Counted from the stretch's first letter, positions 3,189-20,000 are shown. The stretch: DNA of 20,000 nucleotides from an uncultured virus (IMG/VR IMGVR_UViG_3300025015_000444) (IMGVR_UViG_3300025015_000444), one strand, 5' to 3'. The notes: generated by a model from the letters alone, not told the origin. A program made the numbers and translations.

Positions 3189-4220
3189 CTATTCGGGTTT
3201 CCTACCAACTACAAACGGTTCCCACGCAGGCTTGAGCGCCGTTCCCCATCCCTCGAACTGTTTGGCCTCGGGAGTGGCCGCTTTGGTTACGGGAATCGTA
3301 ACAGCAACCTGTTTGGCCCCCGTTCCGTAAGCCCCCACACCTTTACCCCCCGGGTCGTCTGTAGTACGGATCTCGTCTGCCTCGTTGACAATGTCGTTGA
3401 GGTTTTCTCCCCCAACACCCTGCTGATAGCCAATGACCTCTCGCTGGTCACTTGCACCGAGGTGGCGGTCTATCGCTTTTGCCACATTTAGTGATTTGGG
3501 GAAACCTGAACCGTAGCACCATGCCGTTAGCATGAGATTTTCGAACCCTACAGATTCCATTGCGGCAGCGAGCCTGTGAAATGTGCGCGTGGCCGAAAAA
3601 GCCTTGATCACACCCCCCGGCTTCAACACTCGAAAGACCTCTATCAGCCAAGCCGTGTGCCAAATCTGCATGGACTCAGCCTGTTGCAAACGGACGTTTG
3701 GGAAGGACGGGTCTTCACACTGACATCGGGTAAATCCTTCACGGTCATTCCCCCGCTGTGTCCCCCCACAGTTCTCACAGATGGGGTTCGGGGAACCGTT
3801 GAAAGAAGGGAGGTTCGTATTCTGGAATCTGTCGCTTCCACCTGAAGTGAAACTCGCCCCACCTGTCGCCACACGGGGTTTGCCCAAAGGCTTCCAGTGG
3901 TCATGTGGCTTCTCACAGGTACATTTCTTAGCCCCCCGTAGACGACCCCCACAGACGGCACACGTTGGATTTGCCGTGCCAAACTGAGCGTTGCTGGAGA
4001 ACGAGGGCCAGTCTGTCTTGCGATCCCCAATGCCGGGTTTCGAGAAACCCCCTGACATTAACCATGCTTGTGGGATCTCTAACCTATCCCACTCTTTTCC
4101 CATAAATTCAAGGCCATATGGGGGATCACAAACAACTGCCCCAATTGATTGATCTTCCATCCCCCTGAGAACCTCGAAAGAGTCTCCCAACCGAAGCTGA
4201 AGAAGCTGTTGCGTCATCAC
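3189..4220 (-). CDS. Amino-DNA methyltransferase (N6A/N4C, beta class), N-terminal catalytic half only, with a Cys-rich insert
   Basis: GDSFEVL...VVCDPPYGLEFMGKEWD, FRVLKPGG, WCYGSGFPKS, GWGTALKPAWEP; ends at VVGRKPE with no DPFxGxG SAM-binding motif. Confidence 0.9.
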   Translation of the reverse strand: MMTQQLLQLRLGDSFEVLRGMEDQSIGAVVCDPPYGLEFMGKEWDRLEIPQAWLMSGGFSKPGIGDRKTDWPSFSSNAQFGTANPTCAVCGGRLRGAKKCTCEKPHDHWKPLGKPRVATGGASFTSGGSDRFQNTNLPSFNGSPNPICENCGGTQRGNDREGFTRCQCEDPSFPNVRLQQAESMQIWHTAWLIEVFRVLKPGGVIKAFSATRTFHRLAAAMESVGFENLMLTAWCYGSGFPKSLNVAKAIDRHLGASDQREVIGYQQGVGGENLNDIVNEADEIRTTDDPGGKGVGAYGTGAKQVAVTIPVTKAATPEAKQFEGWGTALKPAWEPFVVGRKPE

Positions 4221-5032
4221 ATCTCCTCCCCGAACCCGAAGAAATTGTCGAAGCTAATCACCCCCGCATCTTCCTTTGGCCGTTCAGGAGCATCGGACTG
4301 AATCTCGACCCCTTGATTGGCGGGAGTGGTGAGTTTCCAATCCCAATGCCGAACCCTGGCATCTGCAATAACCAAGTAGTCAGGTTCCCGCTCTATCCCG
4401 ATGAAAGCATGCCCCGTCTTGAGACATGCAATCCCAGTTGAACCGCTACCCATGAAAGGATCCAGCACTGGACCTTGATCCGTCGGCACATCTCGGAGTA
4501 GCTTTTCCATGATTGCCATTGGCTTACATGTTGGGTGAAAGTTGTGGACTTGTCCTGCTGTGCGCCCCGCCCCTGCCCTCGGGGATTCGAGCCCTGCCGT
4601 ATCCTCTTCTCGGTCTACGGCTTCTGCCCCTGACCTGGCTGGAAGATGCGCGCACCCGGCTTCCCGTTCCGCCCGTGCTGCCTTAGGTACGTAATGAAAC
4701 CGCCCGGGTTCGGTAACGAACAGAATGGAGTCCCGTATCTCAAACCCGGCATCCTCAATGGTACATGCTCCCGTATGACCCGTAGGCTCTTCGTCGGGAG
4801 CAATCAAGATCAAGTGTGCTCCTGGCTTCAAGACACGAAGAAACTCCACGGACTGTTCTTCCGTGGGGGTTCCTCGTATGATGAGTCCTGTGACGGACTC
4901 TTTCTCCCATCCCGCTACAGTCTGCATCGTGGAATCATTGATCTCTGTCAGGTAGACCGCCTTGACATAAGGCTCTGGCGGGGAAATCAAGGTAATCAGG
5001 TAACTGATCAGATCGTCAGGCATCGTTGTCAT
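4217..5032 (-). CDS. Amino-DNA methyltransferase, SAM-binding half with a degenerate catalytic region
   Basis: NFHPTCKP, VLDPFMGSGSTGIA and FIGIERE are intact; LRVLKPGAHL and IEDAGFEIRD are retained; no DPPY/NPPY/SPPY motif. Confidence 0.88.
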   Translation of the reverse strand: MTTMPDDLISYLITLISPPEPYVKAVYLTEINDSTMQTVAGWEKESVTGLIIRGTPTEEQSVEFLRVLKPGAHLILIAPDEEPTGHTGACTIEDAGFEIRDSILFVTEPGRFHYVPKAARAEREAGCAHLPARSGAEAVDREEDTAGLESPRAGAGRTAGQVHNFHPTCKPMAIMEKLLRDVPTDQGPVLDPFMGSGSTGIACLKTGHAFIGIEREPDYLVIADARVRHWDWKLTTPANQGVEIQSDAPERPKEDAGVISFDNFFGFGEEM

Positions 5033-5661
5033 TTTGGTTGCTCCTGAACTTGCTTGAAGAAGCGGGAAGCCCCACCCGCTTCTCCGAATCCTGGATCCAC
5101 AGCCGTGTGCTCCGTAGTAAAGCCTGTTGGCCCCAAACCAGTGAAAGCCCCCTTGGCGTTCCCTATCCGGCCCCCCGTGGATACGGATACCCCACTCTGT
5201 TGATCAAGGTCTCGAACGGGGCACCCTGGTTGACAATCCCAGGCATCTACGGTTTCCAAGCCTGCTGTATCAGCAAAGCCCCCACCCAAATAAAGGTCTG
5301 TTCGTCCTGTCCCATATAGGTTCGCAGCCCCGAAACCTCCTGGGGCGGTTCCGTGATTACCTGTCCTGACTTTTCGTTCTCCAACGCACCGGCAACCCGG
5401 CAAATGACACAAGATCAGGTTCGCGGGCCAACGCCCAGCTTGTTTATACAGGTCTTGCTGAGAACCATCGGCATTGTTTTTACCCGTTCCTGGAGAATAA
5501 TCGGAAGAGGCAAGATGCTTATAGCCTTGGGTTACGCGAGGTTCTCCTTTTTTCAAAGAAACTCGGCACCCATCAATGTTGATCCCCCCAGCCCCATGTT
5601 TCAACACGTTGACCGCAACAGAACCAATCAAGGGTTTTCTAGCTAGGGTCAGAACGATCAC
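5029..5661 (-). CDS. MTase middle-module copy A (210 aa)
   Basis: MIVLTLARKPLIGSVA...NIDGCRV...GRWPANLILCHLPGC...WDCQPGCPV...GGASRFFKQV; 4-nt overlaps at both ends. Confidence 0.87.
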   Translation of the reverse strand: MIVLTLARKPLIGSVAVNVLKHGAGGINIDGCRVSLKKGEPRVTQGYKHLASSDYSPGTGKNNADGSQQDLYKQAGRWPANLILCHLPGCRCVGERKVRTGNHGTAPGGFGAANLYGTGRTDLYLGGGFADTAGLETVDAWDCQPGCPVRDLDQQSGVSVSTGGRIGNAKGAFTGLGPTGFTTEHTAVDPGFGEAGGASRFFKQVQEQPK

Positions 5662-5987
5662 CGAAGGTCTCCGCTACCTGTAAGTTGGCCCCGTGCTTTG
5701 CGTGAAGCCAGCTTGTCAATGTTCAGTCGGGCGACATTTTCCAGACTGAGCCCCAGTTCCCGAGCCAGGGCACTCACGTACCAAAGCACATCGCCCAGTT
5801 CTAAAGCTAGAGCATTGAGTCGGGCGTCACTGATTAGTCCCCCGTCATCCCGAAGGGCCTTTTTGATCTTTTCGCAGACCTCTCCGGTTTCCCCAGCCAA
5901 GCCTAGAGCCGGGTACACCACGTTGTGCCCTTTGTCCGGGTACACCGCTGTGTCGAAACTGTGCTTCTGGTACTCGTCAAACGTCAT
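5658..5987 (-). CDS. MazG-like nucleoside triphosphate pyrophosphohydrolase
   Basis: LGLAGETGEVCEKIKK...ELGDVLWY...NIDKLASR: the ExxE...ExxD motif of all-alpha NTP-PPases. Confidence 0.92.
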   Translation of the reverse strand: MTFDEYQKHSFDTAVYPDKGHNVVYPALGLAGETGEVCEKIKKALRDDGGLISDARLNALALELGDVLWYVSALARELGLSLENVARLNIDKLASRKARGQLTGSGDLR

Positions 5988-6002
5988 CCGGGCATATCCC
6001 TG

Positions 6003-7601
6003 TTACACTAACGAATCCACGATCCCATCAGCTACCCGATCCCCCTGTGCCTTCATGTCATTCCGGGTGCGCCCCGCAGGCAACACCATGTCTGCACAGG
6101 TATAGAGCCTTCTACAAGGCCACTCTACCCGTGCTTGAAAGAGTGGGAAAGGTGGTTCATCACGAGCCTTCAAGCACTGGAACTGAACCCTGTTGGATCC
6201 CCTCAAGTCGTCATCAAGCCAGGAGGCTGTAATCACGTCGGAAGACCTCTCCGCTTCGTTTGCGTAAGAAAGGTGAACCAGGTCATAGCTTGCCTCTCCG
6301 GTCTTGTCTTTTCGTTTCATAGCGGACCTGAATCCCTCACGGTTGATCTGGAACATCCCAACTACAGCCATCCCTGACCCTCTGTTGAAAGACATAGCCA
6401 AGCGTTTGAGATCCCGCATGACCTCATTGAGTCGATCCGTGGTAGAGGAAACCCACTTGCGAGGAGCCATCAACCCGGCGTGATCCACGAACAGAACTCT
6501 GTAGGGGATCTTGCCATACAAGGTCTCGGCACGATGCCTGAGATCTGCCATCGTGAAATCGTTCTTGTCCGGGTCAGCCACCTCGATCTGAATGTTGCCG
6601 TAGTTCTTTGGGTCAGGCCACGGTCGATGGGTGTAGGGGTCTTCCCCTTCCACGACTAACTTGCCATTGAAATCGGGGATCACGTAGTCGAACAGGAAAG
6701 CCCGGCCGTTCGGGTGCCACTTGTGCAAGTCGGCATCCCGAATGTGCCTGTAGGGCAATCCCATCTGGTCATCCGGGAACTTTTGCAGCCCCAGTTTGTG
6801 CCGGATTGCCTTGAACTTGTCGTGGGCAGAGTGCATGGCATACAGGATGTTCCGACACTGGACGTAGGGCATCTCCAGCGAGAAAATCAGGCTGCTTTGG
6901 AGGAAATAGGAGGCTTGAATGTATGCCCAGTTTAGCAATAACGTCGATTTTAGATGCCCGGTGAAAGCAGCATGGAGCCAGAGTTCATATCTCTTGGCCC
7001 CGCCCAGGATGTCCATCTGGGCTAACCCGGTTGGACAGCCCACACCGGCAAGAGGGTCACTCTCGATTCGGATGTAATTCTCTGATATCCCTTTGCCGTC
7101 TCGTGTGACCTCACCAGATAGCGATGAGCCAATGGCCGGAGCCAGTATGTCATGTCCTTGATCCATGACATACTTGACGGCATCCTCTGGGCCTTGCAGG
7201 AACTTAGTCTGCCCCTTGCCCAGATCGATCTTGACCCCGGTTCCAACGATAGTGCTGGCTTCCTTCAGAATCTCGGATATCCGTCGCAGCTTGCGTTCGG
7301 CAACCTTGCCTTTGACGTAGTTTTCAAAGTCTCCCTGGAGCTTGAGAGGGAGTCCCGACAGTTCGTTGAGTCGGTCAGTGATCCGGTCTTCTTTGGCCCG
7401 GTGGAAGTGATCCTGAAGAGTGGCCAAACCGGGGGCATGTCGGTGAGTGAGAATGAACTCTCGAACGAACGCAAAGATGACCTCATCTTCGAGGATGTCA
7501 AAAGTCAGACCGGCTCCCAAAAACACCTGGAAGTTCTGGAGCATCAGATCCTTGGGATCTGTTGGGGTTGCTGCAAACAGGGAACGGAGGATCGTCTTCA
7601 T
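6003..7601 (-). CDS. DnaB-like (SF4) replicative helicase, divergent
   Basis: PTGL..MD, AAFTGHLKST (Walker A variant), IFSLEM, VLFVDH (Walker B), LKRLA, QINR, ERSSDVI, LKARD. Confidence 0.85.
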   Translation of the reverse strand: MKTILRSLFAATPTDPKDLMLQNFQVFLGAGLTFDILEDEVIFAFVREFILTHRHAPGLATLQDHFHRAKEDRITDRLNELSGLPLKLQGDFENYVKGKVAERKLRRISEILKEASTIVGTGVKIDLGKGQTKFLQGPEDAVKYVMDQGHDILAPAIGSSLSGEVTRDGKGISENYIRIESDPLAGVGCPTGLAQMDILGGAKRYELWLHAAFTGHLKSTLLLNWAYIQASYFLQSSLIFSLEMPYVQCRNILYAMHSAHDKFKAIRHKLGLQKFPDDQMGLPYRHIRDADLHKWHPNGRAFLFDYVIPDFNGKLVVEGEDPYTHRPWPDPKNYGNIQIEVADPDKNDFTMADLRHRAETLYGKIPYRVLFVDHAGLMAPRKWVSSTTDRLNEVMRDLKRLAMSFNRGSGMAVVGMFQINREGFRSAMKRKDKTGEASYDLVHLSYANEAERSSDVITASWLDDDLRGSNRVQFQCLKARDEPPFPLFQARVEWPCRRLYTCADMVLPAGRTRNDMKAQGDRVADGIVDSLV

Positions 7602-8536
7602 GTCAGATCCGTCCCCTTCTTGGGTTTTTTCTTGGCCCTGTACTTCTTAGGTTCCTGCTCCCCTTCCACAACCTCACCTAGCTCGGAATGGTATGCAGGA
7701 TTGGTCACAGAGCGTTGTTTGGGTGCTGAAACCGTTTCTGTCTCCTCTTCCTGTTCTGGAACCAACGATTCGACGATGGGACCAACGGCCACTTCTGGAA
7801 CCGACGGTAGGGGGGTTGCAGGGATTGGAGTTGGGTCCCCAAGGGTGTGTTGAGGCCAACCCTGAAGAAAAACAGCGACCGATTCATCGAAGGCCAGATG
7901 TCCTTTAGCTAGACGTTGATCTGGTTGGTCTGCAAGCCACGTTGGCTTGTCAAGAAAGGCCCGGTGTTGAAGGGCTTCCAGGAGCACCTCAGGCATAGCT
8001 ACGTTTCTGGCTGCTTTGACGCCCAATCGGATGACCAACAACGTCGGGGGACCAACCAAACTAACCAAGGCAGCATAGCGACTCGGGGGTTCTGGTTGGG
8101 ATTGTCCTGTTCGCCGTTCGGCTACATCTCCGTCAAGTACGTCTTCTAAGCCTTTGGAGAGCCAGGCATCCATCAGGTCTACGTCACTAATGACCCGGAA
8201 GAAAAATCGGGGTTGCGTCCGACCCAGAACCAAGAAGGCCCGAGCCAGATGTTCCCGAAGAGCCGTCTGACTCCCGGTGATCCATAGATCTTCTTCGTGT
8301 TTCCCCTCCAGGGGGGAGGGTTGTTTGGCGTGTTGTACCTGAGACAGTCCTCGCCAACCCCGTTCCATGTTGGCATAGATGTCCCGGAGACGAACACATT
8401 GGCAGGGTTCTGTGATAGGCACAATGCAATTGGGGGGCATTCGTTCAGGCGGCACCTGAACCACTCCCCGACCATGACACCGGTCACAATCCTGTCGTCC
8501 GTCACCTTGGGGGTAATCTATGTAGCCCACTGTCAC
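7598..8536 (-). CDS. Zinc-finger protein resembling a degenerate DnaC/DnaI-like helicase loader
   Basis: N-terminal CDRCHGRG...PCQC and a later LLEALQHRAFLDKPTWL segment; sits directly upstream of the DnaB-like gene. Start set at GTG 8536 (GTGA overlap with the SNF2 stop). No Walker A lysine seen. Confidence 0.55.
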   Translation of the reverse strand: MTVGYIDYPQGDGRQDCDRCHGRGVVQVPPERMPPNCIVPITEPCQCVRLRDIYANMERGWRGLSQVQHAKQPSPLEGKHEEDLWITGSQTALREHLARAFLVLGRTQPRFFFRVISDVDLMDAWLSKGLEDVLDGDVAERRTGQSQPEPPSRYAALVSLVGPPTLLVIRLGVKAARNVAMPEVLLEALQHRAFLDKPTWLADQPDQRLAKGHLAFDESVAVFLQGWPQHTLGDPTPIPATPLPSVPEVAVGPIVESLVPEQEEETETVSAPKQRSVTNPAYHSELGEVVEGEQEPKKYRAKKKPKKGTDLT

Positions 8537-10257
8537 AGAAGTTGATCCCAATCCGTTACTTGTGAAGGCGTGTCCCACTCCTGTTTGGGTCTGGGGAATA
8601 ATCCACTTGAGTCCGGGTTCGTTTGAGTCCTTTTGGTAGGGGGTGCTTTCATCAAGGCATCTTCCCGCAACGAGGCAAACAGTTCTTGAATGGTGTCCCC
8701 ATCTTGAAGAACCATCGGAGTACAGTCCCCCTTGAAACGCCGACCCAGGGCTGCCTCAATCAAGTGCATCTTCTTCCCCAACACCTGTAATACCCGGTGA
8801 TCCACCGTCTTGGAGAATAAATCGCTTCGGGCAACCAGATGAATGACATGACACACAGTATGTTCGGACCCGATACGGATCATACGGCCAAGCAGTTGAA
8901 GGAAATCACCTGCGGACCAAGGGGTGTCAAGACAGATGAGCAAGTTCGCGGCCTGAAGGTTGATGGCCTCTGACCCGGCTGTTGTGATGCAGATAACCCG
9001 AGTGGGATCATCAGGGTTCAGAAAGGCCGTCTTGGCAGTCTCCCGTTGTCGGTCATTCTCAGAACCCGTGATCCGAACAGCCTTGATCTTGGCTTTGGCC
9101 AACACAGGCATCAAAAGGTCGATCATCTTCCGGAAACGAGTAAATATGATCACCTTAGCATCCGCAAAATCGCCCTCAGTCAATAGGTCAACAATGGCCT
9201 GGATCTTGGGGGAGTCGTCGGGATCTTCGATGTCAAAGAGATCAAGGGAGTTGGCGATCTCCTGACAATAGGTGATGGCGGTGAGCTTGGTCACCTCCTT
9301 GACTACTACCTCGTCCTTTTTGCCAGTCAAATCCAGGAGTCCTGCCAGAGCTTCCTGGTACTTGGTCTCCTGAGCAGGCGTCATGTCTACTTCGAGAATG
9401 ACTGGGGGCAACAGAGCCGGTAGCTCAGAAGCCACCTCGTGTTTAGCCCGACCCAGATAGTAGGCGTCGATTTCCTGTCGAAACTCGGCAATCTTCTGGG
9501 GCAAGTAGCCCACGATGATCGGGACTTGGCGGCCTCGGGCCACGGTCTGAAGTCTGGTGATGGCGTAGTACATCATGAAATTCCGCTCGGTCATCTGAAA
9601 CAGATCCGGCACCACGACCTTGAAAACACCGTAACCCTCCATCAAGTGGTTCTTGATGAGGGTGGCGGTTAGGCCCCAGCAGCGGCTGGCTGAATCTGCC
9701 ATGAATTTGCAGACCTGATGTACTTGAGTCTTGGTGTTTTTGAATACCGTGGCTTCATCACAGATCAAGATGTAATCCTTCCAGGGCTGAATGGCCCGGA
9801 AGTCCTGTACGGCAGTTCGGTACCCTGTGATGAACACCGTGGGTCCGGTTGATTGCTCGAACAGTCGCCGAGCCATGTTGCGAGCAGCCGGTGGTCCCTG
9901 TCCGACAATGACCCGGATACCACGGGTGAACTTGCTGAATTCGTTGGCCCACTGCCGAGTAGCACTCTTGGTTGTCAGAACAACAACCCTGGTGTTAGGA
10001 TCCTTCTCCCAAAGGTAGCAGAGGGCTAGGATGGCCTCCAAAGTTTTTCCGAGTCCAGTGTCATCACCAAGCAGGAACCGTCGCATCACGGCCAGGTGCA
10101 AGACTCCCTGGACCTGGTAATACCGGATAGACAAGGGCCGTTCCTGCCCGCTGAAATCCGTGAATGTGTCCTTGAGATGCTTGAGGGGCTTGAGTTTCAG
10201 ATCGGTTCTGGTTCGCAGTTCTCGGAGCTTTTCATGCGTTTTGAGTTGGTTTGGCAT
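8533..10257 (-). CDS. SNF2-family (SF2) helicase/ATPase
   Basis: YQVQGV, LLGDDTGLGKT, LICDEAT, GLTAT, KVIIFT, AGSEAINLQAAN, QLLGRMIRIG. Confidence 0.92.
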   Translation of the reverse strand: MPNQLKTHEKLRELRTRTDLKLKPLKHLKDTFTDFSGQERPLSIRYYQVQGVLHLAVMRRFLLGDDTGLGKTLEAILALCYLWEKDPNTRVVVLTTKSATRQWANEFSKFTRGIRVIVGQGPPAARNMARRLFEQSTGPTVFITGYRTAVQDFRAIQPWKDYILICDEATVFKNTKTQVHQVCKFMADSASRCWGLTATLIKNHLMEGYGVFKVVVPDLFQMTERNFMMYYAITRLQTVARGRQVPIIVGYLPQKIAEFRQEIDAYYLGRAKHEVASELPALLPPVILEVDMTPAQETKYQEALAGLLDLTGKKDEVVVKEVTKLTAITYCQEIANSLDLFDIEDPDDSPKIQAIVDLLTEGDFADAKVIIFTRFRKMIDLLMPVLAKAKIKAVRITGSENDRQRETAKTAFLNPDDPTRVICITTAGSEAINLQAANLLICLDTPWSAGDFLQLLGRMIRIGSEHTVCHVIHLVARSDLFSKTVDHRVLQVLGKKMHLIEAALGRRFKGDCTPMVLQDGDTIQELFASLREDALMKAPPTKRTQTNPDSSGLFPRPKQEWDTPSQVTDWDQLL

Positions 10258-10300
10258 CGGGACTCCTCACCTCCCATCCTCTTACCCGAATGGACAGAAC

Positions 10301-10924
10301 TCAGAGCCAGTGGATGAAGTCCAACACGCGGTCGAGTAACTGGGTGTGGTCCTCGATACGACCAGGGTTGTTACGGGCAACCTGACGTAGCTTCAGAAGG
10401 AGTTTCGTAGCCGAATCCGTTGCCGGGATCTTCAAGATCTTCTCGACCTCTGGGGCGAATGCCTTGACCTTCTGGCCGAGTCCTCGCCAGAGGATGTCTC
10501 GCAGGGGCTTGTCTGCCCAGACGGCTAACCCCAGGATCACCTGGTCCATTACGGCTTCGGCGTCGGCAAAATCGGGTACCTGGAGTCCCCGTTGGTAGCT
10601 CGGGGTTTTCCCGGCCGTGTTCATGATCCGGAGGGCCATTTTGAGGCTCTCCTCCTGATCCGGAGTCATGGACGGCCAGAATTCCTTGCTTTCCATCAGG
10701 GTGAAGAACACGTAGGGAAGATACTTGGCCGGTACCCGTGCTTTCTGCATCTGATTCCGGACCTCGGCCACAACGGTGTCCCCGTGGCCCAGGATGAAAT
10801 CCATGATGGCTGTCCCCATCTGGGTGACGATGTTGGCCAGACGTTCCCCGGTCTTGTCCCCCACTGGATGACCGTACATGCGTTCGTAAAAGGCTTCCCA
10901 GTCTACCTCTCGTGGGTCGATCAC
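10301..10924 (-). CDS. Hypothetical protein, 207 aa, predicted helical
   Basis: GTGA overlap with the upstream gene; protein-like composition. Confidence 0.75.
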   Translation of the reverse strand: MIDPREVDWEAFYERMYGHPVGDKTGERLANIVTQMGTAIMDFILGHGDTVVAEVRNQMQKARVPAKYLPYVFFTLMESKEFWPSMTPDQEESLKMALRIMNTAGKTPSYQRGLQVPDFADAEAVMDQVILGLAVWADKPLRDILWRGLGQKVKAFAPEVEKILKIPATDSATKLLLKLRQVARNNPGRIEDHTQLLDRVLDFIHWL

Positions 10925-11703
10925 GAAGCCCCCTGAATGTCCACAACCAACCGACCTGGTTCCCCGGTCAGGAACAATGTAGCCCCCTGTTGGGTTCGTA
11001 TAACCTGAACACCGCCATGAGCTTGCAACACTATTTGCCGACCTGGCACTGCCAGATGTCCAACTTGTTGTTCTTGCGAGGAAAACCGAGCCAGGGCAGG
11101 GGTCTGGGCAGCAAGTACCCCGGCAATCTTGTCCAAAGAGTTCTGACCATGACCTGCCATGGTCAAGGCATCAGCAGTTCGCATCCCAATCTGCCCGTCG
11201 ATTGGGCCACAGTTGTAGCCTAAACGGTGTAACTGGGCCTGCACAAATCGTTCAAGGGGATGGTCCCCTTTCCAGCAACCTGCATCTGTTTGGGCTGCAC
11301 AGCACAAAGAAGGCCAGGCCAGATGCCCGCGACCTTCAGCCAGAAGCCTGTCTACTACGGTCTGCCAAGGACCATAGAAATGGAACACCTGACTGTCTGA
11401 ACGACCCGTCACAGGAAAGCGTTGAGCCGGAGTGAAACCCAAAGGCACGGCATGTCCCCATAGCGCATTGAGGGCGGCTTCTTTCGTGTATGTCCCATCA
11501 CGTTCCAAAGCGAGATGTATCTCCCTACCTGCGGGGATCAAGCTCAGAGGATCTGCCTCCACAACAGGAGACGGCCCTGTTAGTTTCGAGCGCCACCCCA
11601 AAGGGTCCACTCGTGTAGCCAAGACCCGCAGAGCCTCCGCCACATCCGGTGCCAGAATCAATCCTCGATAGTTGCTGAGCGCCAGTCGCCTCATTGGCCC
11701 CAC
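10921..11703 (-). CDS. Protein with a peptidoglycan-binding (PG_binding_1-like) domain
   Basis: VQAQLHRLGYNCGPIDGQIGMRTADAL matches the PGBD signature. The start may be ATG 11694. Confidence 0.65.
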   Translation of the reverse strand: MGPMRRLALSNYRGLILAPDVAEALRVLATRVDPLGWRSKLTGPSPVVEADPLSLIPAGREIHLALERDGTYTKEAALNALWGHAVPLGFTPAQRFPVTGRSDSQVFHFYGPWQTVVDRLLAEGRGHLAWPSLCCAAQTDAGCWKGDHPLERFVQAQLHRLGYNCGPIDGQIGMRTADALTMAGHGQNSLDKIAGVLAAQTPALARFSSQEQQVGHLAVPGRQIVLQAHGGVQVIRTQQGATLFLTGEPGRLVVDIQGAS

Positions 11704-11728
11704 CTACCCTAGCGGTTCAATAGCCCCC

Positions 11729-12085
11729 TTACCGGACGGGTTCTTCAACCACAAAACAAGGCTTCTTGGCCTCCTTAGCGAGCTTGATTGTATGGGCCGT
11801 TCCTCGGGAGGTCTTGTCCCAGAAGGCGAGAATCCTATCCGCCGTTTGGACAATCTGCTTGTTTCGAACCATCCCCGCCCCCCGACCCAAGCCTTTCCAA
11901 TCAGCCAAGTAGACCTCAACAATCAAGCCCAACCGTCGAGCCTCTTCTTCGGCCCAGGTATCCACCCCTCGGGCACCTCCACTCACGATGATGGTCGTGG
12001 GATCCCTGGCCGCAATTTTCCGAACCGCTTCTCGTACCAGGTCGGGTCGGGAAAAGTCTCGGGATCCTACGATGGCTATTTTCAT
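11729..12085 (-). CDS. SLOG-superfamily (YspA/DUF2493-like) protein
   Basis: KIAIVGSRDF, IVSGGARGVD, ADW...GRGAGMVRN, AFWD..SRGT. Confidence 0.9.
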   Translation of the reverse strand: MKIAIVGSRDFSRPDLVREAVRKIAARDPTTIIVSGGARGVDTWAEEEARRLGLIVEVYLADWKGLGRGAGMVRNKQIVQTADRILAFWDKTSRGTAHTIKLAKEAKKPCFVVEEPVR

Positions 12086-12804
12086 ACGTCCACAACCAGT
12101 TCCTCGGAAAAGGCTGGGTTGAGTTCCTGTCCTAGATACCCGAAGGGGTTGTTGAGCACACGGGTCTCGCCCAGCATGTGATCACACGATCCGTGGGAAT
12201 GACCATGGATCCAGAGCTTTGGCTTTCGTTGCAGAATGAGTCCGGTGAGATCTGTCACGAAGAAAGCATTGAGCGGCGACCCCCGGAATTCTTTGGACAC
12301 ACTGACATACGTGGGGAGATGGTGCGTGACCACCACATCCCCTGCCCGAAGGTTCTTTTGGAAGAAGCGAATGGACCTGGCATTATCCGCGAACACCCAG
12401 TCTGTGAAGCCGTAGATGTGACTGAAATCGGATAAGGATGACCGATAGGGCAAGGCTTTGGGGTTTTCGGGGAACCAGAGAGTATTCCCCAGGATTCGTA
12501 CCCCTTCAAGCTCAAGGATCTGGTCTTGCAGAACGTGCAGGTTGGAGTGTTGCCGAGCCACAAAGGCCAGGACTTTCTCAACCCCTTCCTTGGTAGCCCC
12601 GTAAAATTCGTGGTTGCCTGGGGTATAGACCACCTGTGCCCATCGAGCACACAAGATAGAGAAAACCTCTGCCAGGGTCGAAACGGTTCCCAGATCCCCG
12701 GCCACTACCAGAGTAGGGGCCAAAACGGGTAGAGTCCTACAGAAGGAGACACCATGATCACGGTGCCATTCCGTATGGAGGTCGCTGATGACTTGGAGCT
12801 TCAT
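12082..12804 (-). CDS. Calcineurin-like metallophosphoesterase
   Basis: SDLH, AGD, PGNHE, THH and HGHSH motifs. Confidence 0.93.
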   Translation of the reverse strand: MKLQVISDLHTEWHRDHGVSFCRTLPVLAPTLVVAGDLGTVSTLAEVFSILCARWAQVVYTPGNHEFYGATKEGVEKVLAFVARQHSNLHVLQDQILELEGVRILGNTLWFPENPKALPYRSSLSDFSHIYGFTDWVFADNARSIRFFQKNLRAGDVVVTHHLPTYVSVSKEFRGSPLNAFFVTDLTGLILQRKPKLWIHGHSHGSCDHMLGETRVLNNPFGYLGQELNPAFSEELVVDV

Positions 12805-12910
12805 GGTCTATCTACCCCGGTGAGGGATCCACCTAAACATCCGGGTCAATAAACAGGTTATGCACTCCCCCGAGTGAACCCGGTGGACCAGAACCCCAGG
12901 AGTACGCATC

Positions 12911-15900
12911 ATGAATCTTGATCGAAAGGTCGCCAAACGCTATCTGAGGAAGATCGCCATTGAGGCCCCGGCCTCTCCTGTCTCTGGACCTCCGGAGAAA
13001 GAGATTCTTCCCACTCGGTTGGTAGACCTGATCAACTTGGCAGTGGCCTTTGATGCTTACCTGACCTGGTTGGAACAACAGGGTATCGACCTGGACTCGT
13101 TGGCCCAGCAAGGGACGGTTCTGGTCCGCCGGTTCCTCCCATCGCTTCAACTCGGGGTCACCCAACACTTTGCGCCCATCATGGAACGACCCGAAGCCTC
13201 GATACTTCGCACAAAATGGCAACGAGCACAACTTCCTGGCACTCCTCCAGATATAGCTCGCCGACTGGCCAGCTACTTCCAAATGCTTCTCCCCTGGTTG
13301 AAGATTCATCATGGGGTCTTCCAAGACATCTTCTCTGGTCGGTCGGCCAAAACCATTCGGGATCTGGTCGTAGTCGTTCAGGAAGAAAATCCCGCAGCTT
13401 GTCTCAACAAGGCGGCTGCCCTGGCCCCCATCTCGGGTCTCACCATGCCCCGCAAATGGATAGAAGAAGCTGCCCAAGCCGCCGGAGCACCTTTGACAGC
13501 CGGAGAGGCTGCCATCACCGACGGACAAACAGCCCAGAATCTCGGAGAAGATCTCCAAACAGTTGAGTCCAAGATTGGGGTGGTCACTCAAGGCACCCCA
13601 GAAGCCGCCGCTCTTCAGGAAGAACGCACCAACCTGGTTGCCCAGATTCACCAGGTTGCTCAGGAATCAGCCAGTCCCAGTGTGGTTCTCGCAACCGCCA
13701 CATCGGCTACCCGAACCACGCCCCGGTCTGGAGTCATTCAACGCTTTGGCCTCACGGACGAACAGGCCGAAGTCGTGCAGGCAATGGGCAAGGTTCTGGT
13801 TGCTGCCGGGGCGGGCAGTGGCAAGACCCAAACGATAGTAGCCACCATTGCCTCTCTGGTGGAGGAAAAGGGCTATGCCCCGGCTCAGATCCTGACATGT
13901 AGCTTTACTCGGGCAGCCTCAGCCGAACTCGGTTCTCGTTTGGATGCCGCTGGGGTTGGTGGAGTGGACTCTGGAACGACCCATCATGTCGCCCGGGGCA
14001 TCATTGAACGCAACCGCCCCAATCTGGTACCCGCGATGCGGAACACCCGAGGGGCCGATAAATGCTTCAAGATGGCCATGATTCAAGTTCAGATGGACGT
14101 GGCCGGGTTCCAGAGACAGATGGAAGAAGGCAAAGCTGTCCTTCAACGAATCGAATCTATCCCCGGTTGGCGAAGCATCGAGATTCTCAAGTCGTTTCAT
14201 GACCAAGTAGGTCGGGGTCGGTCCCTCTCTGAAAAACAACTCGCGGTTCTCCCCAAGTTTGAACGTGGTGGTGGAAGTGGCGGTTGGGGAGGTGGTTCTC
14301 GACGCCCCTACCGACGTTGGGCGGCTGAAGAAGAGGATTCTGGAGGGGCCGACCGACGGTCCAAGTATTGGTCTGCCCCCATCGGCGAATGGTTCAACCT
14401 CGGCAAGCCTCTCCTGGATGAAAAGGGTGGCAAAATGGGTCCGAAACGGGCCTTGCTTGCCGTGGATAACTACAAGAACTCCGGAATAGGTGTTGACCAA
14501 GCCCGTGCAACCAACGGAGACACCCCCATAGTAGCCCTCTATGCCGCCTATGAGTGGCTCAAAAAGAACGACCCCGTGTTCGGTCCGGCTATGGACTACA
14601 CGGACCAGCTTCAAATCTCCCTGGAAATTCTGGAAACCGACCCGGCCGCCCGAGCCGCAGAACAGGGCAGATATCGCTGCATCCTCGTGGACGAAGCCCA
14701 GGACCTAAACGAAACACAATTCAAGATGTTCCAACTTCTCGGTAAGTCTGCGGATTTACTGAGCTTCATCGGAGATGACCGTCAGAGCATCTACGGCTTC
14801 CGGGGGGCAAGGCCGCAGAACTACACGGCTTTATCTAAAGACCCTGCCTTCCAGACGAAATTGATGACCACCAATTTCCGAAGCGGCAAAGCCATTGTGG
14901 ATGCGGCTGAGAAACTCATTGCCTATAACGAGGATCGCCAAGTCCCGAAAGTTTGTCGGTCACATGACCGTCGAGGGGTTGGCTCTATCCGGGCCAAGGA
15001 TCCCTTGACCCATGAGGAGGGGGCGGCAACAGTAGCCCAAGAGATCGCCGATGCTGTGGCAGCCGGGGAGTCTCCCGCAGACTTCGGTGTCTTGGTACGC
15101 AACAATGCCGAAGCGGATGCCTACAATCTGGCTCTCATTGCCCGGGGCATTCCTTACCGAACCCTCAAGAAGGAACAAGGGGGCTACTTCGGTAAACCCG
15201 TCGTCAAAGCCCTGACCGCCTGGCTCCGTTTGATTGTGGGCGGCTCGGATGCTGAGATCAATGATGCTGTAATCGAGGCCCATCAGACCCCCGGCTTCGG
15301 TCTGGACAAGCAATTTGCCACCTATCTCGGCCGTCAGGTACGTGGGTCGAACTATCTGGACTGGATTTCCGCCGCGAAACCGGTCTATCAGGGTCCGGCA
15401 GCCTGGATGGACAAGAGAGTGGCCGAGTACATGAACACCATCCGACAGGTCCGGCTTCAAGGACAAGGGGATTCATCAGCCCTAATCCAGGCCATTCTGG
15501 GGCTGAGAGGAAACAAGAGCACTTTCATCGAAACACTTATGAAGTTCGTGGACGAGGATGACGTAATCGAGGATGAGGGTGAGGAAGCCGGGGAAGAAGC
15601 TATCAGAAACGCGGCTCTGGCTCCGGTTCGACCCCTCATGACCATGGCTGAGAATTTCCCTGACCCGGCCAACATGTTGCTTTTCATTGCCAAGATGAAA
15701 GGGGCTAACGAGAAAGCCCAGAAAAAGACCCCCCAGGATAAAGAAGACTGGAAAGAACCTGCCGTTCTGGTGGGCACCGTTCATGGCTGGAAAGGACTCC
15801 AGGCCAAACATGTCTACGTGTGCATGGCCGGAGGAGTGTTTCCCAACTTCCGGTCTGACCAGAAAGCTGAGGAACAAACCCTTGCGGGGGAACCCGTTAC

Positions 15901-16180
15901 AGCCTATGACGAGGAACGTCGGCTGGCTTATGTGGCAATCACTCGGGGTATGGACTCCTCTACAGTTATCTCTCCCCATGCAAACTACAATGGCAAGCCC
16001 GCTATAACCAGCCGTTTCATTGGTGAAGCCTGTATCCAGACAGTGGGTGAGGCCCAACAGGAACAAGAGGAACAACTGGTGGAGACAGCCAAGACAGCCA
16101 GTTTCTCTTTCGGGGCTGACCTGGCAACGGCCTTTGAGCAAGGACCAGTTCAATTTGATCTGTTTGGCCTGGAGGGGTAG
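12911..16180 (+). CDS. UvrD/Rep/PcrA-family SF1 helicase with a ~275-aa N-terminal extension and an internal insert
   Basis: LTDEQ, AGAGSGKT, SFTRAAS, LVDEAQD, IGDDRQSIYGFRGA, NFRS, LVRNN, TVHGWKGLQ, EERRLAYVAITRG; AGGAG RBS. Confidence 0.93.
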   Translation: MNLDRKVAKRYLRKIAIEAPASPVSGPPEKEILPTRLVDLINLAVAFDAYLTWLEQQGIDLDSLAQQGTVLVRRFLPSLQLGVTQHFAPIMERPEASILRTKWQRAQLPGTPPDIARRLASYFQMLLPWLKIHHGVFQDIFSGRSAKTIRDLVVVVQEENPAACLNKAAALAPISGLTMPRKWIEEAAQAAGAPLTAGEAAITDGQTAQNLGEDLQTVESKIGVVTQGTPEAAALQEERTNLVAQIHQVAQESASPSVVLATATSATRTTPRSGVIQRFGLTDEQAEVVQAMGKVLVAAGAGSGKTQTIVATIASLVEEKGYAPAQILTCSFTRAASAELGSRLDAAGVGGVDSGTTHHVARGIIERNRPNLVPAMRNTRGADKCFKMAMIQVQMDVAGFQRQMEEGKAVLQRIESIPGWRSIEILKSFHDQVGRGRSLSEKQLAVLPKFERGGGSGGWGGGSRRPYRRWAAEEEDSGGADRRSKYWSAPIGEWFNLGKPLLDEKGGKMGPKRALLAVDNYKNSGIGVDQARATNGDTPIVALYAAYEWLKKNDPVFGPAMDYTDQLQISLEILETDPAARAAEQGRYRCILVDEAQDLNETQFKMFQLLGKSADLLSFIGDDRQSIYGFRGARPQNYTALSKDPAFQTKLMTTNFRSGKAIVDAAEKLIAYNEDRQVPKVCRSHDRRGVGSIRAKDPLTHEEGAATVAQEIADAVAAGESPADFGVLVRNNAEADAYNLALIARGIPYRTLKKEQGGYFGKPVVKALTAWLRLIVGGSDAEINDAVIEAHQTPGFGLDKQFATYLGRQVRGSNYLDWISAAKPVYQGPAAWMDKRVAEYMNTIRQVRLQGQGDSSALIQAILGLRGNKSTFIETLMKFVDEDDVIEDEGEEAGEEAIRNAALAPVRPLMTMAENFPDPANMLLFIAKMKGANEKAQKKTPQDKEDWKEPAVLVGTVHGWKGLQAKHVYVCMAGGVFPNFRSDQKAEEQTLAGEPVTAYDEERRLAYVAITRGMDSSTVISPHANYNGKPAITSRFIGEACIQTVGEAQQEQEEQLVETAKTASFSFGADLATAFEQGPVQFDLFGLEG

Positions 16181-16185
16181 GGCTG

Positions 16186-17325
16186 ATGGCAAGCACTTAC
16201 GTCAGAATCACCCGTGACGAACTGGAAGACTGGCTCAACACCCTGCACCTGGCTGACAAGTGGTACCGGGCAGAAAACAAGGCCGGAGTCTATATGCTCC
16301 CCTTCTCTGACCTTTGTGCCGTCAAGCTCTCCAGTACCATTGGGTCCAAAGACGATGCCATGGGTCGCGGCATGGCTTCCATGCAACTTGCTTTGGTTTC
16401 TCGTGTCACCGGCAAGGTACTCAACAAGAAGGCTCAGGGACAATCCCATTTCGCCCGAACGACCAACTGGAAAAAGAACTGGCAGGATGGGGTTGAACGA
16501 ATGAAAGACGCCTACGAAGCCTCCCAGAGTTTCTACGAGGCTCTTGCCCCCATCGAAGACCGGGTCAAATATCAAACCGACCTGCTCACCAAAATCGAAA
16601 GTCACCCCGACTGGCGGAGCCACCCTGTTCTCTCCGTGTTGTACCAGAAGGTTGAGAAGGGTGGGATTCTGATCGACCGGGAACTTAAACAGATTGAGGT
16701 TGCTTTGGGAGCACCCCATTCGACCCCTGCACAGGCTGAATCCCTTGTGGATTCCATGGTCAACAAGGATTCGGAAACCGAAGCCCTTCTGACCCGGATG
16801 CGTAATCTCTATATGATAGCCAAACGGTCAGGGGATCAGTGGCTTCAGGAGTTCCTCACCAACGTGGCTCAGCAAATCAAGGCTGGACGCAAACCCACTC
16901 CGAAACAACAGGGGGTCTTGGATCAGAATCTGGCTCGGCATCGGTTGGCTTGTCGTCGGATGGTTCATGCGATCTTGGTCTCCACCGACTTTTCCACCAC
17001 CCCCATGTCCAAACCCACAGCAGTTCGCAAGCTCTACAAGATCCTCGGACGTTCCACAGCCGGATTTTTCTCTGATGAGTCCTGGCAAGCAGTTCACAAG
17101 GTCTTTGACCTTCTCAAGCAAGCCGGGGTTTACTACACCCTCACCCGTACCGAGTACCAAAAGAACGACCAGGGAGTCCCTAGCAGCAAGACCTGGTGGC
17201 TTGAGGTGTCCTTCTTGAACCCCGCCGGAAAAGAGCAGACTATACACAGCTACATCGTGGCTGCCGGAGCCGGATCGGTACGGGATCCACTGGACCGATA
17301 TGACTTGACCGTGGTTTTCAACTAA
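16186..17325 (+). CDS. Hypothetical multi-domain protein, 379 aa
   Basis: Long ORF starting 5 nt after the UvrD stop; its middle contains two segments similar to the UvrD insert. Confidence 0.8.
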   Translation: MASTYVRITRDELEDWLNTLHLADKWYRAENKAGVYMLPFSDLCAVKLSSTIGSKDDAMGRGMASMQLALVSRVTGKVLNKKAQGQSHFARTTNWKKNWQDGVERMKDAYEASQSFYEALAPIEDRVKYQTDLLTKIESHPDWRSHPVLSVLYQKVEKGGILIDRELKQIEVALGAPHSTPAQAESLVDSMVNKDSETEALLTRMRNLYMIAKRSGDQWLQEFLTNVAQQIKAGRKPTPKQQGVLDQNLARHRLACRRMVHAILVSTDFSTTPMSKPTAVRKLYKILGRSTAGFFSDESWQAVHKVFDLLKQAGVYYTLTRTEYQKNDQGVPSSKTWWLEVSFLNPAGKEQTIHSYIVAAGAGSVRDPLDRYDLTVVFN

Positions 17326-17411
17326 TCTTGGGGGCAACGCCCAGATCGGGGGTCGGTAACTGCTCTATAGGTCTTTCTCAATGACCCCATAACGGGGGGA
17401 AGGAAAATGAA

Positions 17412-17603
17412 ATGCCGGAGCAAACAGCGAAAGATTGGTTTGAGCTTAACCATGCCCAACTGAAGAAGGAGTACAACGGTCTTACCATCGCCATTCCCGT
17501 CGTAGCCCCCTTCAAAGTGGTTGCTTCTGGGTCAAACAGTATGAAGGTCACAAAAGCGGCCAAGGACGCGGGCTACCCCAACGTCGCCTTGTTCAAGCTC
17601 TAA
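17412..17603 (+). CDS. Small DUF5678-like protein
   Basis: WF..NHAQLKKEYNG..IAI....VVASG.......AAK..GY resembles DUF5678; GGAAGGA RBS. Confidence 0.6.
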   Translation: MPEQTAKDWFELNHAQLKKEYNGLTIAIPVVAPFKVVASGSNSMKVTKAAKDAGYPNVALFKL

Positions 17604-17647
17604 CCCAACCCTACTTTTGTCAGGCTTAGCCGGAACCCCTTCTGCGT

Positions 17648-17881
17648 AGCACTGATTGGATCGGGTGGACCCCCCCAACGGGAGAAACCAGATGCCCGCT
17701 CCAGATGGCTATGGCAAGCCGTTGTGTCGGGAACTGGTCCACAAAGACAGGGCTGGCAGGCTCCGGAGAGACTCTGGCCCAAAGAGAGACCATCCCTGGT
17801 GCCAACCAGGGATCTCGAAAACGCCCCGAGTCAAAAGAGAACCTCGGGGTACCCGGTCCACTCTTGTAACTCGTCGGTGCT
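17648..17881 (+). ncRNA. Candidate structured non-coding RNA or cis-regulatory leader (~235 nt)
   Basis: Closing helices 17648-56/17873-81 and 17663-71/17855-63 enclose several nested stems; immediately followed by a terminator. Confidence 0.5.
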
Positions 17882-17882
17882 T

Positions 17883-17939
17883 TGGACCCTCTTCTGGGAT
17901 CCCATAAGCAGTTTCCCAGAAGAGGGTCCACCTTTTTTT
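17883..17939 (+). terminator. Intrinsic terminator
   Basis: Perfect 17-bp stem TGGACCCTCTTCTGGGA (17883-99) / TCCCAGAAGAGGGTCCA (17914-30), then CC and T7. Confidence 0.8.
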
Positions 17940-18002
17940 AGGGTTTCGGGCTGCTTTCGGGTAGAGAGCCTTGGGGAAACACCCATTGAACAGGCTTTGC
18001 AA

Positions 18003-19463
18003 ATGAACACTCTCTACTACGGCGACAACCTGACTGTTCTTCGAGAACATTTGAAAGATGCTTCCGTGGATCTGGTCTATCTGGACCCCCCGTTCAATTC
18101 TGGACGGGATTACAATGCCTGCTTCAAGGGAACAGAAGCAGAGGGGCAAACGGCTCAAATCAAAGCATTCACGGATACCTGGTCCTGGGACACTGTGGCA
18201 GCCCGAGCCTATGATGCCACGGTGAAGATCGGGGACAAGGTATCGGACATCCTCAAAGCATTCAAGGTCGTCTTGGGGGAAGGGCAGATGCTTGCCTATC
18301 TGTCTATGATGGCTCCCCGGCTAGTCGAACTGCACCGGGTCATGAAAGACACTGCCAGCATCTACCTTCACTGTGACCCGACGGCTTCGCACTACCTGAA
18401 GATGCTCATGGACGTAGTGTTTGGGAGAGGGAACTTTCGGCGGGAGATCGTTTGGGCAAACAACACGGCATCTGGATTCAAAACCAAGACTAGAAACTGG
18501 GTGCGTGGACACGACATACTTCTCTACTACATGAAGGACGCGGAGCCTGTTTTTAACCAAGAATTTCTTCCCTATGATGATCGAACCATTCACAGATATG
18601 ATAAAAAGGATGAACAAGGAAGACCCTATAAGATATACCGCGAGGAAGGTAAAGAACGACGAGCGTATTTAGATCTTGCCAAAGGACGGCTTGTTTCTTC
18701 TGTCTGGGGGGACATTACAGATTTTCAAACTGTCAATAATACAGGGGAGCGTCTCGGTTATCCTACGCAGAAGCCTCTTGCCCTTCTCAAGCGGATCATC
18801 AGTGCCTCATCCAATCCCGGGGACACCATCCTCGATCCCTTCTGTGGTTGCGGCACGGCCATAGACGCAGCACAGGAGCTTGGACGCAAGTGGATCGGGA
18901 TTGATATCACGCATCTTGCTATAGGGGTTATCAAGAAGCGGCTGGCCGATGCCCATAGCCTCGAAACCAAGAAAGACTACACAGTGATTGGGGAACCCGC
19001 TGACCTGGCCGGAGCACAAGAACTTGCTAAGCAGGATCGGCATCAGTTTCAGACATGGGCACTCGGTCTAGTAGATGCACGAGAGACCTCTTCTCATAAA
19101 GGCGGGGACCGAGGGGTTGATGGAGTCAAGGTTTTTGACGACGGCAAGGTCAAGTGCCTGATATCCGTCAAATCGGGAACGATCAACCCAGGAGTTATTC
19201 GGGATCTTCGAGGGACCATGGATCGAGACAAGGCTCCTTTGGGGTTACTAATCACACTTGAGGAACCGAGTGGGGGCATGACCCGCGAAGCTCTGGCAGC
19301 AGGCTTCTGGGAACCTGACGATGTTACCGCAGTTCTGGATGATGCCAAAATCCCGTGCATCCAGATAGCAACCATTGAAGAGTTGCTGGCGGGTCAACAC
19401 CCCCAATGGTCAAATCTAGCGGATAACAGAACTTTCAAACGGGCAAAACGTCGCACAACCTAG
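18003..19463 (+). CDS. Site-specific adenine DNA methyltransferase (beta class, Mod-like) with a C-terminal Mrr-like PD-(D/E)xK-fold domain
   Basis: MNTLYYGDNL, VDLVYLDPPFNS, YPTQKP, LDPFCGCGT; the C-terminal part has GDRGVDG...ISVKSG. Start reassigned from 17724 to ATG 18003. Confidence 0.9.
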   Translation: MNTLYYGDNLTVLREHLKDASVDLVYLDPPFNSGRDYNACFKGTEAEGQTAQIKAFTDTWSWDTVAARAYDATVKIGDKVSDILKAFKVVLGEGQMLAYLSMMAPRLVELHRVMKDTASIYLHCDPTASHYLKMLMDVVFGRGNFRREIVWANNTASGFKTKTRNWVRGHDILLYYMKDAEPVFNQEFLPYDDRTIHRYDKKDEQGRPYKIYREEGKERRAYLDLAKGRLVSSVWGDITDFQTVNNTGERLGYPTQKPLALLKRIISASSNPGDTILDPFCGCGTAIDAAQELGRKWIGIDITHLAIGVIKKRLADAHSLETKKDYTVIGEPADLAGAQELAKQDRHQFQTWALGLVDARETSSHKGGDRGVDGVKVFDDGKVKCLISVKSGTINPGVIRDLRGTMDRDKAPLGLLITLEEPSGGMTREALAAGFWEPDDVTAVLDDAKIPCIQIATIEELLAGQHPQWSNLADNRTFKRAKRRTT

Positions 19464-20000
19464 ACCAGAAGCACAGCCGCCGTTAGCACCGTGGTCCAAT
19501 GCCCTTTCGCGTTGCCCTTGGCTGATTGCACAATAGACTTGGAGTCAACCATCTGCCCACTCATCTTGTAGGCTTCTTCCCGTTCATTCCATGCCAGATC
19601 CGGGTCCACTTCAATGCCTAATGTGGACCCCAACATCGTGGCGGCGAGATCCTCTGCGTAGTCTCCGGCTGCTCTGACTGTCAGACCATAGGCATGATGC
19701 TCTGAGATGTAGCCGTACCGCGTTACGTCCCGTGGTCGGGCCAACCCCACGGCTGCCGTCACAACCCGTCCTGGTTCATCTGTGTCGTTCCTGGACAATA
19801 CCACGTAGGTCACACGTCCAGGCGGGAGATGAGCAAGACCCTGTTTCCGGGTCAGGAGGCGACAATGAGGCGGGAAAATCGAGGAAACATAGACCAGATT
19901 CTGATGTTCGATTCCGGCATCCCGAAGGGCCATCTCAAAACTGGCCAGACGTTCCTTATGAACTCCCATCCCTTTGGTGAAGAAGGCTCCGGTTGGAACA
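19460..20000 (-). CDS. Pyruvoyl-dependent arginine decarboxylase (5'-truncated by the window edge)
   Basis: VPTGAFFTKGMGVHKERLASFEMALRDAGI..NLVYVSSIFPP (SS autocleavage site), YGYISEHH, WTTVLTAAV; the frame stays open to the window end. Confidence 0.88.
   Translation of the reverse strand, partial: VPTGAFFTKGMGVHKERLASFEMALRDAGIEHQNLVYVSSIFPPHCRLLTRKQGLAHLPPGRVTYVVLSRNDTDEPGRVVTAAVGLARPRDVTRYGYISEHHAYGLTVRAAGDYAEDLAATMLGSTLGIEVDPDLAWNEREEAYKMSGQMVDSKSIVQSAKGNAKGHWTTVLTAAVLLV

Follow-up and report, generated by a model that had tools for sequence, protein, structure and literature searches.

Large structured non-coding RNA classes such as raiA, ROOL, GOLLD and OLE are defined by many covarying homologues. 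In enterobacteria, small RNAs derived from 3′ untranslated regions (3′ UTRs) share the terminator of the upstream mRNA and are mostly short RNAs that act by seed pairing. The HK022 put and EAR elements are processive antiterminator RNAs, which make RNA polymerase terminator-resistant, measure ~65–120 nt and adopt two-stem or pseudoknot folds; EAR constitutes an Rfam family. Riboswitch and attenuator leaders, such as SAM-I/IV, consist of a P1-closed domain and then an intrinsic terminator, upstream of the gene for a SAM-using enzyme; they are recognized by an aptamer conserved upstream of homologous genes, and by a terminator and an antiterminator that are mutually exclusive and of comparable stability. 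The raiA motif, like ROOL, GOLLD and OLE, which are larger, is of unknown function, and some of these classes occur in or near phage-like DNA (see also bioRxiv 10.1101/2024.12.08.627333; PMC10861870).

Here we describe a candidate structured RNA within a 20,000-nt stretch of DNA from an uncultured virus (IMG/VR IMGVR_UViG_3300025015_000444), the whole of which was analysed and is referred to as the window. The element (17648–17939, + strand) comprises a predicted structured core and an intrinsic terminator, and is situated between the final gene of a helicase operon and the gene for a DNA methyltransferase. A sequence-only reading of this DNA had proposed either a stand-alone phage non-coding RNA or an attenuator/riboswitch-like leader that controls read-through into the methyltransferase gene. 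With its length of a few hundred nt and its multi-stem junction, the element is reminiscent of raiA, ROOL, GOLLD and OLE, some classes of which likewise occur in or near phage-like DNA; however, no such Rfam model matches it at E ≤ 10 over 17500–18100, and no homologue of the element was found. Its position is like that of 3′ UTR-derived small RNAs, in that it comes after the final ORF of an operon, is not separated from it by a terminator, and extends to the operon terminator, yet its core is a predicted 234-nt multi-helix fold known from sequence alone. As with put and EAR, the candidate RNA is encoded in cis within phage or operon DNA and a strong terminator follows closely, whereas its 234-nt core contrasts with their ~65–120 nt. 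The layout of riboswitch and attenuator leaders is also recognizable, but the element has no aptamer match and no mutually exclusive antiterminator, its P1 and terminator share no nucleotides, and relatives of the methyltransferase lack such leaders. The abstracts that we surveyed contain nothing specific to this element.

Results

Genomic context of the element

The window originates from groundwater metagenome DNA, and five DNA runs carry part or all of 17000–18600, none of them recorded as RNA. Among the four runs compared, three carry the stretch with zero differences in full-length contigs and thus offer no natural variation, and the fourth covers just 17101–17266 and 18316–18401. Logan contigs from three runs (37,314, 13,411 and 3,631 nt) share one end at ~19123, 523 nt beyond 18600 and inside the methyltransferase gene, which suggests a branch in the assembly graph, e.g., strain variation or a repeat.

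According to Pfam and PHROG matches, a minus-strand block (216–12804) harbors phage-like replication and modification genes, including those for a CHC2 primase, a DnaB-like helicase, an SNF2 helicase, MazG, a metallophosphoesterase and several DNA methyltransferase-like proteins. Paralogous small genes at 1519–5681 (− strand) have common 112-nt and shorter repeats (families D1–D7); their PHROG matches lie in the N-terminal part of phrog_3008, a DNA methyltransferase family, and they adjoin split-looking N6_N4_Mtase genes at 3189–5032. From 12911 onwards, the plus strand carries an operon of ~5 kb, sequentially organized as a UvrD-like helicase gene (1,089 aa; 12911–16180, assigned by ORF and domain search), the ORF of a 379-aa protein with no family assigned (16186–17325) and, as the final ORF, a 63-aa gene taken from the ORF list (17412–17603) with GGAAGGA ahead of its ATG. 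The 63-aa ORF seems to be a genuine small gene: a search of 1.84 billion representatives yields two relatives of 64–67 aa (47% and 45% identity; E = 4e-9 and 8e-7), and DUF5678 gives a weak match below threshold.

While the other operon junctions are 5 and 86 nt, the gap between the 63-aa gene and the methyltransferase gene is 399 nt. The structured element occupies most of this gap, beginning 44 nt past the stop codon of the 63-aa gene, and the methyltransferase gene starts 64 nt after the T-run of the terminator. This gene (18003–19463, + strand) encodes a DNA methyltransferase with a C-terminal Mrr-type domain (N6_N4_Mtase, 1.4e-41; Mrr_cat, 5.3e-6; phrog_67, 1.3e-62). The phage setting upstream of a methyltransferase that had been read from the sequence is therefore borne out, given the phage-like neighbors and an N6/N4 methyltransferase–Mrr fusion as the next gene. 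A pyruvoyl-dependent arginine decarboxylase gene (19460–19969, − strand) follows with a 4-nt tail-to-tail overlap; its product is at most 62% identical to the best 80 loci from species-representative genomes, and these span bacteria, DPANN archaea and Thermoplasmatota in many phyla, so that the host lineage is not narrowed.

The helicase gene and the 379-aa gene form a conserved two-gene module, in which a UvrD-like helicase is directly followed by a 260–290-aa protein; the window copy of the latter, with 379 aa, has a C-terminal extension. The family of the 379-aa protein comprises 145 proteins at E ≤ 0.001, and one relative, P0004, shows 91% identity. Among the matches listed there are 21 longer metagenome loci, 13 of which have a plus-strand ORF of >1,000 aa ending where the relative of the 379-aa protein starts; in several others, such an ORF lies one small gene further upstream, or a contig end intervenes. 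All six large ORFs scanned encode UvrD-type helicases of 1,038–1,652 aa, two of them with intein or LAGLIDADG insertions. After the module, most of the 21 listed loci switch to genes on the other strand, and the 12 downstream gaps that were folded are partly coding in appearance and unrelated to the RNA. As the 21 listed module loci lack a comparable downstream element, the RNA is not a regular part of the helicase module. Foldseek gave no PDB match at E ≤ 0.001 for an AlphaFold model of the 379-aa protein (mean pLDDT 78.8); the best VIA-align Z, 7.2, falls on a helical hairpin, and the predicted fold offers no pointer to a link with the RNA.

Predicted fold of the core

The structured core (17648–17881, + strand; 234 nt) folds at minimum free energy (MFE) into 74 predicted pairs, including 8 G-U pairs. 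The sequence-only reading had called the element highly structured, and the folding energies agree: the core reaches −103.2 kcal/mol, compared with −83.0 ± 4.7 kcal/mol for dinucleotide shuffles (z −4.33), and is better than 200 of 200 shuffles. On the reverse strand of 17648–17881, z is only −0.95 and 29 of 200 shuffles are as good. When the 5′ spacer or leader and the terminator are included, the plus strand reaches z −5.29, with none of 100 shuffles as good. A GC-corrected 240-nt scan identifies the element as the strongest outlier of the 20-kb window on both strands; the minus-strand signal at the element comes largely from scan segments that take in the terminator hairpin, which is symmetrical. 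Neither flank is structured beyond expectation (17326–17660, z +1.57; 17931–18030, z −0.35). The excess stability on the plus strand only, together with 8 G-U pairs among the 74, fits structure at the RNA rather than the DNA level. The scan ranks ~761–1040, within a primase-like ORF (668–1270), as the second-strongest folding outlier, with residual z of −2.9 and −2.3 on the two strands.

In the predicted fold, a bipartite closing stem, P1, surrounds a multi-helix junction that contains one 52-nt hairpin and three 28–31-nt hairpins. The 5′ strand of P1 (17648–17666) pairs with its 3′ strand (17851–17881) through an outer helix, AGCACTGAT/GTCGGTGCT (17648–56/17873–81; pair probability ~1.0, range 0.72–1.0), and an inner helix, whose MFE register (17657–66/17851–60) has pair probabilities of 0.42–0.58; between the two segments of the 3′ strand lies a 12-nt internal loop, CUCUUGUAACUC (17861–72). 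P2 is a weak 3-bp helix (probability 0.15). P3 (17687–17738) is a three-segment hairpin (17687–91/17734–38, 17695–99/17726–31 and 17704–10/17717–23) with pairs mostly at 0.68–0.99. P4 (17750–17780) is a hairpin of 12 pairs capped by a CGGA loop (17750–63/17768–80; 0.89–1.0), P5 (17786–17816) a hairpin of 4 + 8 pairs with a GCCA loop (inner 8 pairs at 0.98–1.0, outer 4 at 0.61–0.78), and P6 (17823–17850) a hairpin of 10 pairs, the main 8 of which are at 0.87–1.0. A-rich linkers (CCACAAAGACA, AAAGA and GAAAAC) join P3, P4, P5 and P6. The centroid matches the MFE structure for outer P1, P3, P4, P5 and P6, with pair probabilities of ~0.9–1.0. The fold is predicted from a single sequence with 60% G+C, and its inner P1 is ambiguous.

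Six of the seven stems picked out by eye in the sequence-only reading are present in the thermodynamic ensemble. Stems ATCCCTGGT/ACCAGGGAT and GCCCCGAG/CTCGGGGT each have a pair probability of ~1.0, and ACCAG/CTGGT enclosing CCCG/CGGG and GATGGCT/AGCCGTT is recovered at 0.7–0.99. The seventh, CCGGAG/CTCTGG, is displaced by the 12-pair P4 helix (0.9–1.0), and GGGTGGACC/GGTCCACTC (17663–71/17855–63), although real, turns out to be a minor register (0.36–0.42) of inner P1.

The repeated words that had been noticed in the sequence are indeed present and locally enriched. GGTCCAC occurs on the plus strand at 17736, 17855 and 17925, and TGGACC at 17666 and 17883. TGGACC/GGTCCA has 21 copies in the window on both strands, 5 of which fall inside these 292 nt, against ~0.3 expected pro rata; GGTCCAC has 8 copies in the window, 4 of which are here (three direct and one inverted within ~270 bp), against ~0.07 expected pro rata from the shuffles. 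At the RNA level, the GGUCCA(C)/UGGAYC words give rise to three near-isoenergetic conformers of the inner junction: the MFE register of inner P1 (−137.9 kcal/mol), the inner P1 register of the sequence-only reading (−137.8 kcal/mol), and a conformer in which a helix 17665–71/17736–42 replaces outer P3 (−137.6 kcal/mol). The base of the junction may therefore be dynamic in these models.

Two further complementarities were observed. ACGGGAG at 17678–17684, in the P1/P2 junction, is complementary, with G-U pairing, to CUCUUGU at 17861–17867 in the 12-nt loop of P1, and a 7-pair pseudoknot (17861–67/17678–84) could form across inner P1. The word AAGAG/CUCUU also occurs in the P4/P5 linker, the P6 loop and both arms of the terminator.

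Coding potential and known RNA families

In agreement with the sequence-only reading, which had not confidently recognized a family, an Rfam 15 covariance-model search of the entire window gave no match at the gathering score, with raiA, SAM-I/IV, 6S, tmRNA, RNase P and group I intron among the models. Relaxing the cutoff to E ≤ 10 over 17500–18100 yielded four matches, all to eukaryotic lncRNA or miRNA models, with 16–21 bits against thresholds of 45–58; these are chance-level (E ≥ 0.16). Even at this cutoff, no riboswitch, T-box, leader or EAR family matches 17500–18100, and none of the four matches is of the EAR kind. ARAGORN detected no tRNA or tmRNA. The six ORFs that overlap the gap have no Pfam match and a single PHROG match (E = 0.075), and their translations are rich in R, P and G. 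By every test run, the element is non-coding.

Two other interpretations of the gap were tried and rejected. An open frame that runs from 17724 into the methyltransferase gene could be taken as an N-terminal extension of the enzyme, but relatives of the methyltransferase align from residue 1 or 2, and the terminator lies within the frame. The same alignments, along with the lack of a group I model match, speak against an intron.

Search for homologues

Blastn of the element against phages gave no match, and blastn of 12001–20000 against plasmids and phages gave matches only in the methyltransferase and arginine decarboxylase genes. Neighboring genes were used as anchors: the methyltransferase led to 54 viral loci with relatives of at most 52% identity, the 379-aa protein to at least 32 metagenome loci (relatives of 39–60% identity; 55-sequence alignment), and the DnaB-like helicase to one 122-kb viral record. 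In viral contigs, no relatives were found for the 379-aa protein alone, for the UvrD-like helicase, or for the 63-aa protein, either alone or as a 3-sequence alignment. In 86 anchored loci, nhmmer and sensitive blastn for the element found nothing above noise.

A covariance model, R1, was built from the single sequence and its predicted structure (234 positions, 74 pairs), and scores 296 bits on the window itself. In the 86 anchored loci, no R1 match exceeds 13 bits; R1 found nothing in the 122-kb viral record, and no homologue in 150 loci overall (the 86, 5 further viral and 59 more). Two junction-motif patterns retrieved 4 and 58 loci from viral contigs, all of which are chance matches by R1. 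Nor was a homologue found by R1 in 447 distinct genomes (10 reached via arginine decarboxylase loci, and 135, 151 and 151 of three phyla), a small sample picked without a known host, such that absence of the element there says little. A single 17-bit match among the 135 genomes (E = 0.059 per genome), which lacks P4 and outer P3, was rejected as chance. Since no homologue was retrieved, the fold is a prediction from one sequence; the absence of relatives is itself weak evidence, because the decarboxylase does not point to a host lineage and the metagenome loci are only those among the matches listed.

That the element is an orphan, with no homologue in any search, would fit non-functional filler or decayed sequence, whose hairpins arose from GGTCCA/TGGACC duplications and G+C richness ahead of an ordinary terminator. 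The hexamer enrichment (5 of 21 copies) could have arisen by duplication and need not reflect selection. The junction is degenerate, P2 is weak, and the z-score of one sequence does not prove function. Yet such an origin sits poorly with an excess stability confined to the terminator-bearing strand (z −4.33 versus −0.95 on the other), with five helices at probabilities near 1.0 and with sharp boundaries. Moreover, genes are tightly packed elsewhere in the operon, and 300 nt of junk would be unexpected in phage-like DNA. We consider this explanation unlikely. On a single-sequence prediction, the element is a plausible candidate for an RNA that functions through its structure.

Terminator and the methyltransferase gene

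The core is followed by an intrinsic terminator (17883–17939, + strand), which consists of a perfect 17-bp stem (17883–99/17914–30), a 14-nt loop, CC and T7; the sequence-only reading had already noted a 17-bp terminator. Its stem, inverted repeat I14, is 100% complementary and starts one base after P1 (17881 versus 17883). On the transcribed strand, a G+C-rich hairpin is thus directly followed by a U-tract, the defining arrangement of an intrinsic terminator, and no T-run follows the stem on the reverse strand. A consensus terminator scanner with a loop limit of 3–8 nt missed the terminator owing to its 14-nt loop. The hairpin alone has a folding energy of −33.9 kcal/mol and pair probabilities of ~1.0. 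No further terminator is present between the 63-aa gene and the element, and across 5 kb of genes in one orientation, the terminator of the element is the first that is convincing.

The competing pairings that had been proposed hold for the inner junction, with its three near-isoenergetic registers, but not for the terminator arms. Forcing the terminator UGGACC onto either upstream GGUCCA gives −122.5 or −122.1 kcal/mol, in comparison with −137.9 kcal/mol, a cost of 15.4–15.8 kcal/mol, and even with these forced partners, 10 of the 17 stem pairs of the terminator persist, as does its U-tract. For the 5′ arm of the terminator, the most stable rival duplex reaches −15.8 kcal/mol, versus −33.9 kcal/mol for the terminator. 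In every co-transcriptional snapshot, the terminator hairpin arises independently once its 3′ arm is present, leaving the core undisturbed, and neither these snapshots nor the forced alternative pairings uncovered an antiterminator. A terminator and an antiterminator that exclude one another with comparable stability were therefore not observed, and by every thermodynamic test the predicted terminator is constitutive.

The methyltransferase loci were used to ask how often relatives of this gene are preceded by a long leader. Among 48 loci whose match takes in the N-terminus, the upstream gap, i.e., the distance to the nearest upstream ORF of at least 70 aa, which is a crude ORF-based measure, has a median of 42 nt, and it is at least 250 nt in 4 of the 48 viral loci. 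Neither nhmmer nor R1 found the element in the 54 viral methyltransferase loci, and an aptamer conserved upstream of homologous genes is thus not seen. Judged from these sequences, the element is not a regular leader of the methyltransferase.

Even so, a cis-regulatory leader of this particular methyltransferase gene, either a riboswitch/attenuator or a put/EAR-like processive antiterminator RNA, deserves consideration, as the element lies directly upstream of the gene and ends 64 nt before its ATG. No promoter-like site was found in 17325–18003 with the sigma-70 consensus, the only one used, which the host may not follow, and no clear Shine-Dalgarno sequence was seen between the terminator and the methyltransferase ATG; the gene may therefore depend on read-through, which keeps a leader function alive. 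The GGUCCA/UGGACC words do connect the core with the terminator arms at the sequence level, but the arms pair with each other at ~1.0 and no antiterminator was found, the alternatives being 15.4–15.8 kcal/mol costlier with 10 of 17 pairs kept. P1 ends before the terminator begins, Rfam has no riboswitch, T-box, leader or EAR model that matches at E ≤ 10, and the relatives of the methyltransferase have short upstream gaps and no R1 match. A 234-nt multi-helix aptamer would also be unusually large. Put-like antitermination, for its part, requires no alternative pairing. On balance, a leader function is quite improbable. The attenuator/riboswitch half of the sequence-only proposal is accordingly not sustained, given that the terminator forms independently, with no competitive pairing, and that the gaps in methyltransferase relatives are short; the other half, a stand-alone or transcript-end non-coding RNA, fits the strand-specific stability, the boundaries, the terminator, and the lack of a coding signal or known family.

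A DNA-level element, with GGTCCA(C) as sites for a regulator, a replication protein or a recombinase or as methyltransferase targets and the RNA fold as incidental, could draw on the three direct and one inverted GGTCCAC in ~270 bp (~0.07 expected) and on its location, which adjoins a DNA methyltransferase gene and separates two transcription units, but is very unlikely, as palindromes would fold alike on both strands whereas the stability here is strand-specific with 8 G-U pairs, most of the structure (inner P3, P4, P5 and P6) is without the repeated word, and the window has no integrase or initiator gene with obvious iterons.

Discussion

We tentatively favor, at a little under an even chance, the interpretation that 17648–17939 (+ strand) is transcribed, folds on its own as an RNA domain and closes the plus-strand helicase operon with constitutive termination. 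The element would be made as the 3′ UTR of the operon, an origin that we infer from the lack of a terminator between the 63-aa gene and the element and of a visible sigma-70-like promoter, and this 3′ UTR might be trimmed to a stable RNA of ~290 nt. Such an RNA would act in its own right, for instance as a protein-binding or stabilizing 3′ domain or as a trans-acting small RNA, and would not be a switch that senses a ligand. With three hairpins of similar size joined by A-rich linkers, and a junction that may be dynamic, it might serve as a scaffold for protein binding. The terminator would at the same time insulate the methyltransferase gene from the operon; with a terminator that is constitutive, the element is expected to insulate the gene rather than to switch it.

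In comparison with described RNAs, the element is so far a single member of terminator-ended structured RNAs in phage-like DNA. It is not called a new class, as a class needs homologues. A bolder interpretation, which we regard as rather unlikely, is that it represents the first member of a new class, a large phage-borne structured RNA of uncultivated groundwater bacteria with a three-register junction, which binds proteins or modifies RNA polymerase, e.g., as a processive antiterminator that lets transcription proceed past the terminator into the methyltransferase–Mrr gene.

The element is a well-bounded candidate that can be tested cheaply and can serve as a seed for homologue searches. If real, it would be a large structured RNA from a setting in which few RNAs have been described, namely phage-like DNA of an uncultivated groundwater organism. 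Its position between a conserved, uncharacterized helicase module and a methyltransferase–nuclease fusion hints at a role in phage replication or in the interplay with host defence.
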